From Alphaproteobacteria bacterium (GTDB lineage: Bacteria; Pseudomonadota; Alphaproteobacteria; UBA11073), in assembly GCA_965246945.1 (NCBI GenBank), contig CBDFFW010000001.1, positions 1,645,639 to 1,709,638 of the forward strand: 64,000 nucleotides of DNA. The letters are read 5' to 3'. The position numbers and the translations under genes are program-made. Within the stretch, counting starts at the first letter, position 1, and every line of letters begins with the position of its first letter. Positions 6,921 through 60,431 of this stretch are shown here, piece after piece. Under the pieces are notes generated by a model. That model was not told the DNA's origin. It ran no database searches and saw only the letters and a program-made list of their open reading frames with translations.

Positions 6921-6937
6921 TTGCACTGGCGCGCTAA

Positions 6938-7076
6938 CCCTCCCCTTGCGGGAGGGTCGAAAAAATGTTTTGCATTTTTTCGGGGTGGGGGCTGGGCTAA
7001 CGGCCCCCCACACACCAAGTTTTTCTAAATTCACTATGTTCATTAAGAAAAACTATCCTCTCCCGCAAAGGGAGAG
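6938..7076. repeat. Cluster of four stem-loops in the hslU-tsaE spacer
   Basis: Four hairpins read by eye: CCCTCCCCTTGCGGGAGGG, CGAAAAAATGTTTTGCATTTTTTCG, TGGGGGCTGGGCTAACGGCCCCC (approximate) and CCTCTCCCGCAAAGGGAGAGG. The first and last are near-identical in design. Confidence 0.5.
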
Positions 7077-7079
7077 GTA

Positions 7080-7505
7080 GTGGTCGCTCTAATAGCTACC
7101 AATGGCGAAGCAGAAACGTGTAGCTGGGCAGCAGCTTTTGCGGCTGGTTTGCACGCGCCATCGTTAGTTTTTCTACATGGTGAATTAGGGATGGGTAAAA
7201 GCGTGATTGCCCGCACCATTATTCAAACATTAAACGGTGCGCCGGATTTAATTGTGCCAAGCCCGACTTTCACATTGGTACAATCTTACGATACCGCACA
7301 AGGGACAATCTGGCATTACGATCTATATCGTTTAAGTGACAGCGATGAAATTTGGGAATTGGCATGGGAGGAAGCATTGCAGGGCATCACCCTGGTCGAA
7401 TGGTCGGAGCGCCTGGCGGGCCGTTTCAACCCTGATTATGATATAACTTTAACGCTTGGCGACACCGCAGACGAACGTATAATTGAATCACTTCGCCATG
7501 GCTGA
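7080..7505 (+). CDS. tsaE: tRNA threonylcarbamoyladenosine biosynthesis protein TsaE (YjeE ATPase)
   Basis: P-loop LHGELGMGKSVIARTI. Its small size and conserved position are typical of TsaE. Confidence 0.8.
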   Translation: MVALIATNGEAETCSWAAAFAAGLHAPSLVFLHGELGMGKSVIARTIIQTLNGAPDLIVPSPTFTLVQSYDTAQGTIWHYDLYRLSDSDEIWELAWEEALQGITLVEWSERLAGRFNPDYDITLTLGDTADERIIESLRHG

Positions 7506-11204: not shown

Positions 11205-11471
<267 letters not shown>

Positions 11472-11472
11472 C

Positions 11473-11895
11473 ATGAATTTTGTTTTAGACAATTCATTTT
11501 TGGTGAGTGGTCTAGTGCCCGACGAAGCACATGCTGACACCGAGTCATTATTCGAAATGTTTGAGAAAGAAAAACATAAAATTTATGTGCCTGCTGTTTT
11601 TTGGCCTGAATATTTAAATGTTATGCTGAATGCCTTAAAGAAAAATCGGATCACCATTAACCATCTAGAAAATTTCTCGGCCATTATAAATGGGTTCAAT
11701 ATTACAGTTTATATACCTTCTAATGATTTGAATTGGCACATACAAAAAGTATTGCCATTGGCCCAAAAATATAAGTTAACCGCTTATGATGCCAGTTATC
11801 TGGCAGTTGCATTGGAAACCAAAGCAACATTGGCAACGTTTGATAAAGCGTTAATGACCGCTGCAAAAGCTGCCAAAATCCCGCTTTTTATTTAA
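11473..11895 (+). CDS. vapC: VapC-like PIN-domain toxin (ribonuclease)
   Basis: Starts MNFVLDNSFLV with the first PIN acidic residue in VLDNS. Further acidic residues fit the PIN spacing (E in WPEYLN, D in TAYDASYL, D in TFDKAL). The longer ORF from 11425 seems unlikely to be real. Confidence 0.8.
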   Translation: MNFVLDNSFLVSGLVPDEAHADTESLFEMFEKEKHKIYVPAVFWPEYLNVMLNALKKNRITINHLENFSAIINGFNITVYIPSNDLNWHIQKVLPLAQKYKLTAYDASYLAVALETKATLATFDKALMTAAKAAKIPLFI

Positions 11896-28851: not shown

Positions 28852-28959
28852 ACCTCATCCTGAGGAGCATCGTAGATGCGTCTCGAAAGATGCTCCAGCG
28901 GAATCTCCTTTAAGTATCCTTCGAGACACCCTGTATTACCGCTCATCAAAATGAGGTAA
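28852..28959. repeat. MITE-like palindromic repeat, family A, copy 1 (right end degenerate)
   Basis: Reads ACCTCATCCTGAGGAG...GCGTCTCGAAAGATGCTCCA...GTATCCTTCGAGAC...ATGAGGT. It shares the 16-bp terminal inverted repeat and inner inverted repeat with copies at 49455 and 49903. It fills the ligA-kinase spacer. Confidence 0.7.
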
Positions 28960-30364: not shown

Positions 30365-30414
30365 AGAGGGTTTATGGCATGAAAGTCATAAACTGGGGAA
30401 AGAATTTTTTTGCC

Positions 30415-30546
30415 GTCATCCCGACGAAAGTCGGAATATAGTGAATTAAAAGCATGATGTATGAGCATTATCCTATAGTAAAATTATTTTTGAGCGCCCT
30501 TGGCGCACATTATTGCCACTGGATCCCGACTTTCGTCGGGAAGACG
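30415..30546. repeat. Hairpin-bounded non-coding element (family B, GTCATCCCG-type) in the regulator-kinase spacer
   Basis: Left end GTCATCCCGACGAAAGTCGGAAT. Right end GGATCCCGACTTTCGTCGGGAAGACG, which is the inverted complement. The ~85-bp AT-rich core contains a GCGCCCTTGGCGC hairpin. Confidence 0.55.
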
Positions 30547-49454: not shown

Positions 49455-49562
49455 ACTTCATCCTGAGGAGTGCCGCAGGCACGTCTCGAAGGGATGCTTA
49501 ACCTGGGTTATCTCACTGGAGTATCCTTCGAGACGCTGCTAAGCAGCTCCTCAGGATGAGGT
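49455..49562. repeat. MITE-like palindromic repeat, family A, copy 2
   Basis: ACTTCATCCTGAGGAG...GTCTCGAAGGGATGCT...AGTATCCTTCGAGAC...CTCCTCAGGATGAGGT. Both 16-bp terminal inverted repeats are intact. It ends 1-2 nt from the GIY-YIG stop codon. Confidence 0.7.
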
Positions 49563-49563
49563 T

Positions 49564-49863
49564 CTATAAGTGTTTCTTTTTATATCTTTCAGCCAGCATT
49601 GGCAGCAATTCATATTCTTTGCGGATCAATGCTTCTTTCTTATCGCGTCGCCAACCTTTAACTTGGCGCTCTGCTGCAATGGCATCCGTTATATTCAGAA
49701 AATTTTCAGCGAATACCAGGCGAACTGGGCGCCGCTTGAATGTATAACACGTTGGATGAAAACCCTGTTCATGCTGGCTCATCCGCAATTCAAATTCGCC
49801 GCGCGTCGTACCTACATAATAACTGTTATCCGCACAATGCAAAATATAGAGCCATGCGGACAT
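49564..49863 (-). CDS. GIY-YIG nuclease family protein (small YhbQ/UPF0213 type), intact
   Basis: MSAWLYILHCADNSYYVGTTRGEFELRMSQHEQG contains the GIY...YVG motifs and an Arg. The C-terminal ...KGWRRDKKEALI is typical of this family. 99 aa. Confidence 0.8.
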   Translation of the reverse strand: MSAWLYILHCADNSYYVGTTRGEFELRMSQHEQGFHPTCYTFKRRPVRLVFAENFLNITDAIAAERQVKGWRRDKKEALIRKEYELLPMLAERYKKKHL

Positions 49864-49902
49864 CCGCTAATCTTATTAAATAACTAGAATGTTTACAACT
49901 TA

Positions 49903-50010
49903 CCTCATCCTGAGGAGCGGCTGAAAGCCGTGTCTCGAAAGATGCTCCAACCAGGTACCTAGGTAAGCATCCTTCGAGACGAACGTTGAGCGTTCTCCTC
50001 AGGATGAGGT
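49903..50010. repeat. MITE-like palindromic repeat, family A, copy 3 (best preserved)
   Basis: ACCTCATCCTGAGGAG cggctgaaagccg TGTCTCGAAAGATGCTCC ... GCATCCTTCGAGAC ... TCCTCAGGATGAGGT. Perfect 16-bp terminal inverted repeats and nested inner inverted repeats. Confidence 0.75.
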
Positions 50011-56124: not shown

Positions 56125-57060
56125 TTGCGGATGGATAAGGCAGATTTATTATTAACCGATACGACATTGTACCAAAATACCAATACTGCTGTTCGCCACA
56201 TGCTGGCCAAATTATTGGCAGCTGGTTACGCCGCCGCTGCTAGTGATGAAATTGTGATTAAAGATTATGGCTGCGGCCAAGGTAATTTAGGAAAATTAAT
56301 TGTTGATACATTAAAAGATGCGGGTAAACCCATTCGGTACATGGCTTATGATGCAGAATTGATTTTGTTACATAATACCGCCGAATTATGGACAGGACAT
56401 TCTGATATTCATACTTCATTTGAAAAGGCTGATATTTTTGACCGGTATTTTTTGATGGGACAAGCCAGCGACCCAGCCGATATTATTATTGCTTCGCACG
56501 TATTATATAATTCTGGTAAAGAATTTGCGGCTTTTATCAAAGCTTGTTTGAACGGTTTAAAGCCAAATGGCTTAACGCTATTTATTAATGATAATGTCGA
56601 AGCAGAAATTCAGATGCTTAGAAGAAAATATGGAATAGGTGGCATTCCATCGGCAATCACGCCGTTGGAAAACGTATTTTACCAAAATGGCATTCAATAT
56701 TTTTACGCCGATATTGCCAATGCCAATGAACCATTTGTGATTGATCAAAATAGGTATGTTGCGTGTGCTTCAACAACGCAAAAAGATGCTCCTGCGAATA
56801 CACAAACAGCAGCAATTGTGCAAGAAGTGGTGGATATGATCGCAGCCGGAGAAGTTTCATGCTTGGCTTTGCCTGAACTGATAGAGTTATTTTGTAAAAT
56901 ATATGGTGCCGCGCCGCAACCTGTGCAGCACCGTATTCATCTGGCATTACCGCCTTTGGGCCACCGGAATTTTGCCATGCTTAAAGTGCTGGAAACTGCT
57001 TTTAATTTTGATCACATTCCCGCTGAAAATTTAGGCGTAGCGCCGCCTACACCGCTTTAA
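56125..57060 (+). CDS. Class I SAM-dependent methyltransferase-like protein, substrate unknown
   Basis: Motif I VIKDYGCGQGNLG, an acidic residue after beta2 (YDAE), motif II-like IIIASHVLY. AT-richer than neighbours. Its 3' end overlaps cheR convergently. Confidence 0.5.
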   Translation: MRMDKADLLLTDTTLYQNTNTAVRHMLAKLLAAGYAAAASDEIVIKDYGCGQGNLGKLIVDTLKDAGKPIRYMAYDAELILLHNTAELWTGHSDIHTSFEKADIFDRYFLMGQASDPADIIIASHVLYNSGKEFAAFIKACLNGLKPNGLTLFINDNVEAEIQMLRRKYGIGGIPSAITPLENVFYQNGIQYFYADIANANEPFVIDQNRYVACASTTQKDAPANTQTAAIVQEVVDMIAAGEVSCLALPELIELFCKIYGAAPQPVQHRIHLALPPLGHRNFAMLKVLETAFNFDHIPAENLGVAPPTPL

Positions 57061-58392: not shown

Positions 58393-59259
58393 GTGGCAAC
58401 CAAGTGCAAAGCTACCCATATTGTGCTTATGGTGAATCGCACAGATGTGCTGGCATATTTGCAGCAATGGCATAATCAGCCCGATGAGGCATTGCCATTG
58501 GCAGAAATTGCGCTGCAGCTTGGTTTGCTGGATGTGCCGGATGGTAATCTCGCCCAATATAAAACGCAGTTGGTGCAGTTACAAAATGATACTCGGCAAG
58601 CGTTTAGCGATGATGGGCATATACCTGCACAAGCTGATGCCTTGCGCCAGGCCATTGTGGGCCGGCATCATTTTACCGGCGATAACGATACCTATGATGA
58701 TTTGCAAAATGCGAATTTGATGCGGGTTCTGGACCGGCGGCGCGGTCTGCCGATTACGCTCGGCATTGTGTATTTGGAAACCGCCCGCGCCTTGGGTTGG
58801 GAAGCAGATGGTTTAAACTTCCCGGGACATTTTCTGGTGCGGCTGACGGGTGAACGTGAACGCGTGATTATTGATCCCTTTCATGGCGGCCAGGAAATGG
58901 ATGCAGTGCGGCTGCGGCAAATGTTGAAAGCCGCCGCCGGTATGGCCGCCGAATTAACGCCGGATCATTATCTGCCCATGGGCAACCGGCAAGTGCTGCT
59001 GCGCCTGCAAAATAATATCAAATTGCGGCAGGTACAAAGTGGGCGGCTGCGGGAAGCTTTAAGCACTGTCGGCGTGATGCAGGCTCTGGCCCCCAATGAA
59101 GCAACCTTGTGGCGCGAAATGGGATTATTATATGCCGCGCTCGGTGAATTAAATGACGCGGTGAAAAATATTCAAACTTTTTATGAAAATTCCGTTGATG
59201 CCCGCAGCAAACAACAAGCACAAATGCTGCTGCAGGAATTGAAAGCCCGTTTAAATTAA
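58393..59259 (+). CDS. SirB1/UPF0162-family transglutaminase-like protein with C-terminal TPR-like helices
   Basis: LGIVYLETARALGWEADGLNFPGHFLVRL resembles the transglutaminase-like core of YchA/SirB1. C-terminal helical repeats. Confidence 0.6.
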   Translation: MATKCKATHIVLMVNRTDVLAYLQQWHNQPDEALPLAEIALQLGLLDVPDGNLAQYKTQLVQLQNDTRQAFSDDGHIPAQADALRQAIVGRHHFTGDNDTYDDLQNANLMRVLDRRRGLPITLGIVYLETARALGWEADGLNFPGHFLVRLTGERERVIIDPFHGGQEMDAVRLRQMLKAAAGMAAELTPDHYLPMGNRQVLLRLQNNIKLRQVQSGRLREALSTVGVMQALAPNEATLWREMGLLYAALGELNDAVKNIQTFYENSVDARSKQQAQMLLQELKARLN

Positions 59260-59700
59260 CTGTCATTCCCGCGCATGCGGGAATCTAGGATCAAAAATGC
59301 CGTTGTGCACAGCACAACGCCTAAATATAATCACTATATGCCTAAAGGCGGCTTTCTTTATATTTTAGCCAGTGGCCGCAACGGCACTTTATACATTGGC
59401 GTTATTAGCAACTTGCCACGCCGCTTGTATGAACATCAGAATGGTTTAATCAAAGGTTTTGCCTGGCGGCATGGCGTTGGGAAACTTGTTTATTACGAAG
59501 AATACAGCACCATTTGAAGCCACTGCCCGCGAAAAAGCGATGAAGAAATGGTATCGTTTATGGAAATTAAATACGATTGAAGCATTTAACCCAGAATGGC
59601 AGGATTTATCAGAATTACTGAATATGTAATTGTTTTTGCCATTGCGCTAACGCGTAATGTCTTCAGTATTCCTAGATTCCCGCATACGCGGGAATGACGA
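59260..59700. mobile_element. Small cassette: 30-bp hairpin terminal inverted repeats (family B) bracketing a frameshifted GIY-YIG gene
   Basis: Left end CTGTCATTCCCGCGCATGCGGGAATCTAGG. Right end CCTAGATTCCCGCATACGCGGGAATGACGA. The ends are inverted complements and each is itself a hairpin. The cassette abuts the fliL stop and the upstream gene's stop within 1-2 nt. Confidence 0.5.
59338..59629 (+). pseudogene. GIY-YIG nuclease family gene interrupted by a +1/-1 frameshift near 59515
   Basis: Frame A: MPKGGFLYILASGRNGTLYIGVISNLPRRLYEHQNG...YYEEYSTI then a stop. The next frame continues FEATAREKAMKKWYRLWKLNTIEAFNPEWQDLSELLNM, the conserved C-terminal half. The break is next to a short homopolymer (CCATTT). 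Confidence 0.6.
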
Positions 59701-59702
59701 GA

Positions 59703-60431
59703 TTACTGAATCAAAAATTCGCGGAACAGCACATCTTTCACTTCGATCGGTTCCACCGCTGGACGGATGCGGGCGAGGAGTTCTTGGCGCAGGCGGTAAA
59801 TGCCGGCCGAGCCTTTGAGATCTTCCACGCGCAATTCGCGCAAATAGGTTTGGAACTGATCCATAATCCGCGGCAATAAACCTTCCAAGGTTTTCTTGTC
59901 CTCGGCACTATCGATTTCCAGGGTGATGCCCAATTTTAGCAACGTCGCTTTGCGGCCCTGGCGGGTATCTAGGTTAACTAAAATATCCTGCATATCGAAA
60001 TAAACGGGGCCGGTGGCTTCGCCTTCTTTACTATCCTTGCCCTCTTTGCCGCCTTCTTTTTTATCTGCTTTGGCATCTTTGCCATGCTCGGCGGATTTGG
60101 CTTTATCGGCTTTATCGGTTTTTTCTTTTTTGGCGTCTTTCTTATCGGCTTTATCGTGTTTTTCGTCGGCGGGTTTATCGCCATCTGCGCTTGCTTCATC
60201 TTGTTTGGCATCTTTGCTGCCGCCCAAAATACCGGCAGCGAATAATCCGCCGACAATGCCGCCAATCAACAATATGGGAACAACAATCATTAAAATGAGT
60301 TTGATCGGCGGGCCTTTTTTCTTCGGCGCTGTTTCGGCCCCTTCCACCACTACGGCTTCGCCGCCTTCAACGGCGGGCACTTCCGGCGCTGCATGGCCTT
60401 TGTCTTTTTTCTTGTCCTTTTTATCGGCCAT
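59703..60431 (-). CDS. fliL: Flagellar basal-body-associated protein FliL with a long Lys/Asp/Ala-rich low-complexity insert
   Basis: N-terminal TM helix ILMIVVPILLIGGIVGGLFAAGIL. C-terminal FliL domain (YFDMQDILVNLD...ATLLKLGITLEIDS...LPRIMDQF...IEVKDVLFREFLIQ). Neighbours cheY and cheR. Confidence 0.7.
   Translation of the reverse strand: MADKKDKKKDKGHAAPEVPAVEGGEAVVVEGAETAPKKKGPPIKLILMIVVPILLIGGIVGGLFAAGILGGSKDAKQDEASADGDKPADEKHDKADKKDAKKEKTDKADKAKSAEHGKDAKADKKEGGKEGKDSKEGEATGPVYFDMQDILVNLDTRQGRKATLLKLGITLEIDSAEDKKTLEGLLPRIMDQFQTYLRELRVEDLKGSAGIYRLRQELLARIRPAVEPIEVKDVLFREFLIQ

Follow-up and report, generated by a model that had tools for sequence, protein, structure and literature searches.

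A probable NTS-ssn-NTS module with a frame-broken GIY-YIG nuclease gene between sirB1-like and fliL genes of an alphaproteobacterium

The 64,000-nucleotide stretch analyzed here (the window: positions 1,645,639 to 1,709,638, forward strand, of contig CBDFFW010000001.1, assembly GCA_965246945.1) comes from an alphaproteobacterial genome and carries, at 59261-59701 on the plus strand, a 441-nucleotide (nt) unit that takes up all the space from the stop codon of a SirB1-like gene to that of fliL. Two hypothetical open reading frames (ORFs) deposited there, of 80 and 52 amino acids (aa), are the halves of one broken nuclease gene of the Ssn family, and the palindromes that surround them are the DNA motif recognized by this family; this correct label is the main outcome for the locus. 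We read the unit as an NTS-ssn-NTS module whose gene is now frame-broken, a recently decayed copy with surviving hairpins, and give this reading a probability of about 0.8. Such an arrangement has been described before, as the Ssn/NTS system (Chenal et al., 2025; PMC11893778), to which the locus adds a decaying example; what is new here is the net 2-nt deletion, the comparison of an occupied with an empty site, and the evidence favoring decay. The module comprises the following parts, in which ssDNA stands for single-stranded DNA.

59261-59701, plus strand: the whole NTS-ssn-NTS module, delimited by the collinear BLASTN alignment of a relative's contig (L003/L006), which runs up to 59260 and again from 59702.
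59261-59288, plus strand: left NTS/SRM-type hairpin, TGTCATTCCCGCGCATGCGGGAATCTAG, with stem 59265-59272 / 59277-59284; it matches the SRM motif and the dRS3 pattern (ssDNA fold -9 kcal/mol, z=-3.9).
59338-59514, plus strand: ssn codons 1-59, with Y8 and Y19 of the GIY and YIG motifs (Pfam PF01541, E=1.2e-8).
59515, plus strand: the lesion, a lone base T left of codon 60 after a net 2-nt deletion, placed by nucleotide alignment with contig L002.
59516-59629, plus strand: ssn codons 61-97 and the stop codon, with the catalytic Glu E66 (in REK), in the +1 frame; all homologues align to it with their C-terminal halves.
59672-59699, minus strand: right NTS/SRM-type hairpin, CGTCATTCCCGCGTATGCGGGAATCTAG, which matches the SRM motif and the dRS3 pattern (ssDNA fold -9 kcal/mol, z=-4.2).

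A full-text search that combined GIY-YIG with dRS3 led to one paper (Chenal et al., Nat Commun 2025; PMC11893778), which describes the system on which our reading is modeled. Roughly one dRS3 copy in two is part of a longer, oriented motif, NTS (CGTCATTCCCGCGMAVGCGGGAATCYRG), which is tied across phyla to ssnA, a gene whose 94-aa product consists of one GIY-YIG domain and belongs to CDD family cd10448; the degenerate SRM motif has at least one copy near 71% of the homologues, and one copy on each side in 42% (PMC11893778). Ssn binds the hairpin only in ssDNA, uses a conserved GTCAT flank to tell its orientation and cleaves 5' of it at a distance of a few nucleotides, and the Y6A, Y17A and E64A substitutions abolish cutting by N. 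meningitidis SsnA (PMC11893778). In this species, Ssn lowers transformation by NTS-bearing DNA, trimming the incoming DNA; the NTS-ssnA-NTS layout looks like an insertion sequence (IS), and the authors leave its mobility as a hypothesis (PMC11893778). Proteins are assigned to the family by a BLASTP match to CAX49033.1 with E<1e-10 and at least 75% coverage, or by cd10448 as the top CDD family (PMC11893778).

The gene opens at 59338 with an ORF (MPKGGFLYILASGRNGTLYIGV...) of 59 residues that ends at an in-frame TGA (59515-59517), and the conserved C-terminal part (EATAREKAMKKWYRLWKL...; EATAREKAMKKWYRLWKLNTIEAFNPEWQDLSELLNM) runs in the +1 frame from 59516 to a stop codon at 59627-59629; E66 is thereby encoded in a different frame from Y8 and Y19. 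Codons 1-59 lie inside the deposited 80-aa ORF (P0004), and the C-terminal part is the 52-aa ORF (P0108). PF01541 is the sole Pfam match and falls on the N-terminal part, while the C-terminal ORF alone has none; the GIY-YIG gene is the only ORF between the two hairpins with a Pfam domain match. With its frame repaired, the product is a 97-aa protein consisting of a single GIY-YIG domain, within the range of about 90-100 aa expected of such proteins. The spacings of Y8, Y19 and E66 (11 and 47) equal those of Y6, Y17 and E64 in N. meningitidis SsnA, so that the catalytic residues of the family are all represented.

The repaired protein has 118 homologues (E from 3e-44 to 5e-5), mostly of about 95 aa (those listed, mostly 94-103 aa). 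Its closest intact homologue, P0001, is encoded on contig L002 at another locus, adjoining an ABC-F gene; codons 1-59 are 81% identical to the matching part of P0001 in translated comparison, and the two genes share 78% of nucleotides and 81% of residues. The L002 contig comes from the same sample as the relatives discussed below, and another repeat family is common to it and the window. A protein of Alysiella crassa (Neisseriaceae; P0069) is 59% identical over 88% of the query (E=8e-24), and a Neisseria sicca protein (P0241), 75% identical to P0069, is encoded between inward-facing hairpins CGTCATTCCCGCG[TC]AGGCGGGAATCCAT on both sides. The order of plus-strand hairpin, gene and minus-strand hairpin also recurs on L002, L090, L091 and L093, as well as, by eye, on L095, whose loop falls outside the SRM search motif; L090 and L091 are viral contigs. 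The initial annotation had tied hairpins to GIY-YIG genes, and the recurrence of one layout across genomes makes this link real and general rather than an effect of chance palindromes. Taken together, membership in the Ssn family appears strongly supported, if indirectly.

Other GIY-YIG proteins are less close. The solved relatives found by sequence are distant: apart from SLX1, they are proteins of the UPF0213/YhbQ type (PDB 1ywl and 1zg2), which share the small single-domain GIY-YIG fold but match the repaired Ssn protein weakly (E=0.001). Homing endonucleases of the I-TevI type share the catalytic domain; this assignment was rejected, as the homing endonuclease model TIGR01453 scores 16.2 bits against a cut-off of 56 and the locus has no DNA-binding domain, intron or phage context.

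The module is bounded by inward-facing 28-nt hairpins, both pointing into it. The SRM motif of PMC11893778 was coded and run over the window: it has exactly two matches in 64 kb, compared with 0.16 expected from shuffles, one on the 5' side of the gene (59261-59288, plus strand) and one on its 3' side (59672-59699, minus strand), each within 500 bp. The dRS3 palindrome, ATTCCC-N8-GGGAAT, likewise has two exact matches in the window, one per hairpin, against 0.01 expected, and the 28-mer with up to three mismatches occurs at these two sites only within the window (0.00 expected). By our own comparison, each hairpin differs from the strict Neisseria NTS consensus at two positions, and the oriented GTCAT flank is kept in both. 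The initial annotation had described a unit bounded by a 30-mer and its inverted complement: the pair is there, as a 29-nt inverted repeat with arms at 59262-59290 and 59670-59698 and 97% complementarity. Its 30-mers occupy 59260-59289 on the left, as annotated, and 59671-59700 on the right, one base to the left of the place that the annotation implied.

The locus resembles the Neisseria system in its protein (one GIY-YIG domain, about 95 aa, Tyr/Tyr/Glu spaced alike), in its 28-nt flanking hairpins, which match SRM and nearly match NTS, in the NTS-gene-NTS order and in the placing of hairpins between genes rather than within them. The differences lie in the host, apparently an uncultured alphaproteobacterium with a genome of about 1.8 Mb rather than Neisseria, in the broken frame, and in numbers: the 64 kb hold two strict copies and give no sign of the hundreds-fold expansion seen in pathogenic Neisseria.

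The frame is broken shortly before the active site is complete. In the nucleotide alignment, the window reads ACCAT--TTGAAGCC where L002 has ACAATTGTGGAAGCC, a 2-nt gap. Simple removal of one base would rejoin the frames but empty the column of codon 60, which is filled in 205 of the 206 homologues of a MAFFT alignment, and the Tyr-to-Glu spacing of 47 equals Y17-E64 of N. meningitidis SsnA only when codon 60 is restored. Because of the alignment gap and the residue present in nearly all homologues, we interpret the lesion as a net 2-nt deletion. The initial annotation had reported a GIY-YIG gene split over two frames by a 1-nt frameshift near 59515; the split and the continuation in the next frame stand, with the TGA at 59515-59517, while the single-base event gives way to the loss of two. 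With translation stopping six codons short of the catalytic Glu, the 59-residue product would be missing a residue that cleavage requires, the one whose substitution abolishes cutting by SsnA. The gene has no uninterrupted reading frame, and the locus is therefore filed as a pseudogene member of the Ssn family, unless the break is an assembly error.

Four readings of these observations compete with a decaying NTS-ssn-NTS module or qualify it, and three concern the palindromes and the frame. That an ordinary small gene merely sits between unrelated chance palindromes or generic terminators has a probability close to nil. The 28-mer has only two copies in the window, and the hairpins immediately follow two convergent genes, a place in which one would look for terminators; yet only 0.01-0.16 copies are expected by chance, a near-identical 28-mer flanks homologues in Neisseria, on other metagenome contigs and on viral contigs, and this conservation across genomes already refutes the idea. 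No T run follows either hairpin and a terminator scan reported neither, so that the NTS hairpins were also rejected as intrinsic terminators of sirB1 or fliL. Hardly more credible is programmed +1 ribosomal frameshifting at AUU-UGA, by which the gene would yield a full-length nuclease as prfB yields its product. In its favor, the last sense codon is immediately followed by an in-frame UGA, beyond which the coding sequence goes on in the +1 frame. The slip product would nevertheless be one residue shorter than 205 of the 206 homologues, the closest homologues are encoded in one frame and do not have the shift site in common, no Shine-Dalgarno-like stimulator is seen upstream by eye, and re-pairing of tRNA-Ile on UUU would be poor. 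A prfB-type shift was rejected on the short product and the single-frame homologues; the initial annotation, too, had considered programmed frameshifting unlikely, and the missing residue bears this out. The third reading, on which assembly or consensus calling went wrong in a short T run and the organism has an unbroken gene in a working Ssn/NTS pair, is unlikely but far from negligible. Both halves are otherwise open and conserved, at about 81% identity to intact P0001 and with no second stop; the break lies in ATTT; the genome, of 1.79 Mb, is metagenome-derived; and split genes do occur on contigs of relatives, which have 2-3x coverage and all stem from a single ENA metagenome sample. Against it, two bases are gone rather than one, and two substitutions fall at strongly conserved positions: T23I, where 99% of the homologues have T, and I62T, where 85% have I. 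Five candidate pairs of overlapping same-strand ORFs elsewhere in the 64-kb window include no other split gene: each pair matches separate full-length families or no family, and none looks like two gene halves. Because none of the five is a split gene and the coding density of the window is 94%, the assembly does not seem generally prone to frameshifts, and a general frameshift problem was dropped as an explanation. The initial annotation had left decay and sequencing error side by side; with two bases missing, no other split gene and substitutions at conserved sites, the balance leans towards decay, by roughly 65:25, the remainder being undecided.

Several points weigh against a recently decayed Ssn-family module. 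The family assignment runs through indirect links. The gene deviates from the family at 6 of 47 conserved columns, T23I and I62T among them; this exceeds the family median of 3, which leans towards decay, and yet falls within the 90th percentile of 7. The break lies in a short T run (ATTT) of a metagenome assembly, where an error of assembly has a modest share of the probability. The choice between insertion and precise loss, discussed next, draws on one fully syntenic relative, a 3x contig, and two distant ones, and both the hairpin count and the question of an intact copy elsewhere cover 64 kb of the genome.

How the module came to its place can be examined in a relative in which the site is empty. 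The genes on either side, which converge on the gap 59260-59702, and two smaller hairpins inside the module are as follows.

58393-59259, plus strand: intact SirB1-like gene, transglutaminase-like with a TPR (Pfam PF13369, Transglut_core2, E=1e-44; PF13371, TPR_9).
59301-59319, no strand assigned: inner 8-bp hairpin, CGTTGTGC-ACA-GCACAACG, in the leader, adjoining the left NTS (ssDNA fold -8.4 kcal/mol, z=-4.1).
59640-59659, no strand assigned: inner hairpin beyond the 3' end of the gene and ahead of the right NTS, less certain than its upstream counterpart (ssDNA fold -5.8 kcal/mol, z=-2.7).
59703-60431, minus strand: intact fliL (Pfam PF03748, E=2.5e-20).

The initial annotation had the gene wedged without a spacer between the stop codons of these neighbors, and so it is: the SirB1-like gene on the left stops at 59257-59259 and fliL on the right at 59703-59705. 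An orthologue of the SirB1-like protein (P0120, 83% identical) is encoded on the ENA metagenome contig ERZ26165376 ctg347532_3x_l (L003 and L006), which is collinear with the window through sucC, sucD, IMPDH, cheR, cheY, sirB1, fliL and gdh at 71-87% nucleotide identity. The alignment stops at window position 59260 and resumes at 59702, and the SirB1-like gene and fliL end at the same codon in both genomes. The comparison of the fliL-side spacer in relatives, which the initial annotation had proposed, thus sets 27 nt in L003/L006 (CATTAGCTGGCACAATTCCTGTAAACA) against 441 nt in the window. The 27-nt spacer does not resemble the module (an equal or better score was reached by 227 of 500 shuffles), and residual homology between the two was dropped from consideration. 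No SRM follows sirB1 in L003, nor in the more distant L004 (71%) and L005 (58%). A search of genome contigs with the SirB1-like protein found only a 39%-identical protein in a Micavibrio metagenome-assembled genome, with no synteny. Because a syntenic relative has 27 nt in place of 441, the module is taken as an insertion, and its gain in the window's lineage, between the convergent sirB1-like gene and fliL, would be the most economical reading. The GC content of the module (42.9%) is below that of the flanking genes (50-51%). An occupied/empty pair is the type of evidence needed to test whether NTS-ssn-NTS units move as a block.

Whether the module brought itself there is the fourth question. 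On a mobile-element view, the unit is autonomous: Ssn would cut 5' of both inward-facing hairpins in ssDNA and so excise or copy the unit, by a mechanism akin to those of IS200/IS605 and REP/RAYT, and gene-less hairpin pairs would be non-autonomous derivatives. We hold this view only tentatively. The breakpoints of the empty site lie 0-2 nt from the outer ends of the hairpins, which is consistent with the expected positions of Ssn cuts; the two cuts would be on opposite strands, one at each outer edge of the module and beside the stop codon of the neighbor there. A closest intact copy at a different locus beside an ABC-F gene, a gene-less inward-facing hairpin pair elsewhere in the window (30414-30546), the lower GC of the module, copies on viral contigs and the IS-like layout noted in PMC11893778 all fit such an origin. 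Set against these, no target-site duplication or conserved target is visible in the comparison of occupied and empty sites, the relative's spacer is replaced rather than split, and both breakpoints abut stop codons, which leaves little resolution as to where exactly they fall. What has been documented in Neisseria is a role in restricting incoming DNA (PMC11893778), and homologous recombination after DNA uptake would leave the same pattern. Self-catalysed arrival of the module, as opposed to ordinary recombination after uptake, is accordingly possible but doubtful. We know of no strand-transfer or transposition chemistry of a GIY-YIG nuclease acting alone. The initial annotation had seen in these nucleases the cargo or drivers of mobile cassettes; the empty site and the intact copy elsewhere give this idea circumstantial support, and it keeps the standing of a hypothesis. 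For a decaying NTS-ssn-NTS module, the copy would have begun with a gene for an active enzyme directed at its own hairpins, would have come in as a block and would now be decaying.

REPtrons (REP/RAYT) and IS200/IS605 elements offer a parallel in layout, a nuclease gene inside inverted hairpins recognized in ssDNA, with gene-less clusters elsewhere. They differ in the enzyme: the only ORF with a domain match between the hairpins here encodes a GIY-YIG nuclease, not a Y1 HUH transposase, and membership of the module in either group was rejected for this reason. Among Neisseria repeats, dRS3 is matched by both hairpins of the window, which fit ATTCCC-N8-GGGAAT exactly, and the Neisseria intergenic mosaic elements (NIMEs) by a pair of diverged NTS-like hairpins (CGTCATCCCGACGAAAGTCGGAAT...) that face inward at 30414-30546 across 73 nt devoid of a gene. 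In addition to the bacterial class, the differences from dRS3 and NIMEs are the diverged stem of this pair (ATCCCGAC...) and the absence of a visible filamentous-phage integrase context. The window thus holds two strict SRM copies plus one diverged pair; an SRM-matching copy related to that pair lies between sucC and sucD in the relative (L006 4267-4294).

Inside the module, the inner hairpin of the leader (59301-59319) is terminator-like on the minus strand only. An Rfam scan of the window reported tRNA and nothing else. A remnant copy lies upstream of the intact ssn gene of L002 (L002 1-96), with a variant hairpin, the leader and six codons (MLKGGY); its leader is about 78% identical to window 59263-59345, and it is cut off by an NTS hairpin. 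The inner hairpin is kept in this remnant, where, in an alignment by eye, the one differing stem position still forms a G-T wobble. An inner hairpin of variable sequence on the gene side of NTS is also found in L093 (1302-1319) and L095 (965-984 and 1304-1317).

Gene lengths on the relatives' contigs of 2x and 3x coverage are unreliable: the ABC-F gene is in four pieces (L002 737-2697) and fliL in two (L003 5864-6564), a pattern that the window does not have. A second length difference from the relative is a 311-aa ORF of low GC at 56125-57060, between IMPDH and cheR, where the relative has about 14 nt; by its sequence alone, the product may be a methyltransferase.

The window has a second GIY-YIG gene, on the minus strand at 49564-49863, which is intact and encodes 99 aa. 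The initial annotation had treated both genes as small nucleases of hairpin-ended cassettes; aligned, their products are only 27% identical and belong to different lineages. The second protein matches UPF0213 (PDB 1ywl) at E=1e-7, compared with 0.001 for the Ssn protein, and it is this stronger match that sets it in a different lineage; no NCBIfam model scores above its cut-off for either protein. The gene lies between two nested palindromes of about 105 nt (49457-50010), here called family A, to which the published SRM motif has no match. A solo family-A palindrome, about 80% identical to these copies, lies at 28852-28957 in a 128-nt gap between minus-strand genes.

The second lineage was followed through 80 metagenome loci (L010-L089) with homologues 47-65% identical, 51 of them non-redundant. 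CAT[CG]CTGAG within 150 nt upstream, together with its complement within 150 nt downstream, is found at 22 of the 51 non-redundant loci, whereas none of 35 control windows on each side, 850-1000 nt away, contains these motifs. The usual layout is a left half, CCTCATCCTGAG...GTC(TC)GAAGGA, then the gene, then a right half that is its reverse complement; the palindrome contains CATCCTGAG...GTCGAAGGA, which translates to LILSLSKD. The window's palindromes of about 105 nt look like two such halves joined without a gene. Literature searches that combined GIY-YIG with REP, MITE (miniature inverted-repeat transposable element) or UPF0213 found no paper tying this lineage to a palindrome, and the second lineage with its palindrome may be a more novel lead than the ssn locus.

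The relative again differs at this place. In L006 2345-2564, which corresponds to window 49457-49677, only the last 37 or so codons of the family-A gene remain, together with one family-A palindrome, past which comes an unrelated 121-aa ORF. The window therefore has a whole family-A gene, which the relative has only in truncated form, and a broken ssn gene, whose intact counterpart sits on a different contig of the relative's metagenome; this contrast suggests fast turnover of GIY-YIG genes while hairpins persist. More speculatively, small single-domain GIY-YIG nucleases and their hairpins may form a self-mobilizing class, with gene-less pairs as miniature derivatives and at least two unrelated hairpin families, each with its own lineage; if true, this would explain the origin of the second lineage's palindrome.

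Two further features of the window stand apart from the GIY-YIG loci. A palindromic repeat family with CCCTCCCCTTGCGGGAGGG and CCTCTCCCGCAAAGGGAGAGG types occupies 6936-7080 in a 159-nt intergenic gap and is common to L002 3441-3605, on the contig of the closest ssn homologue, at about 80% identity. At 11205-11895, overlapping ORFs encode a PhdYeFM antitoxin and PIN toxin pair.

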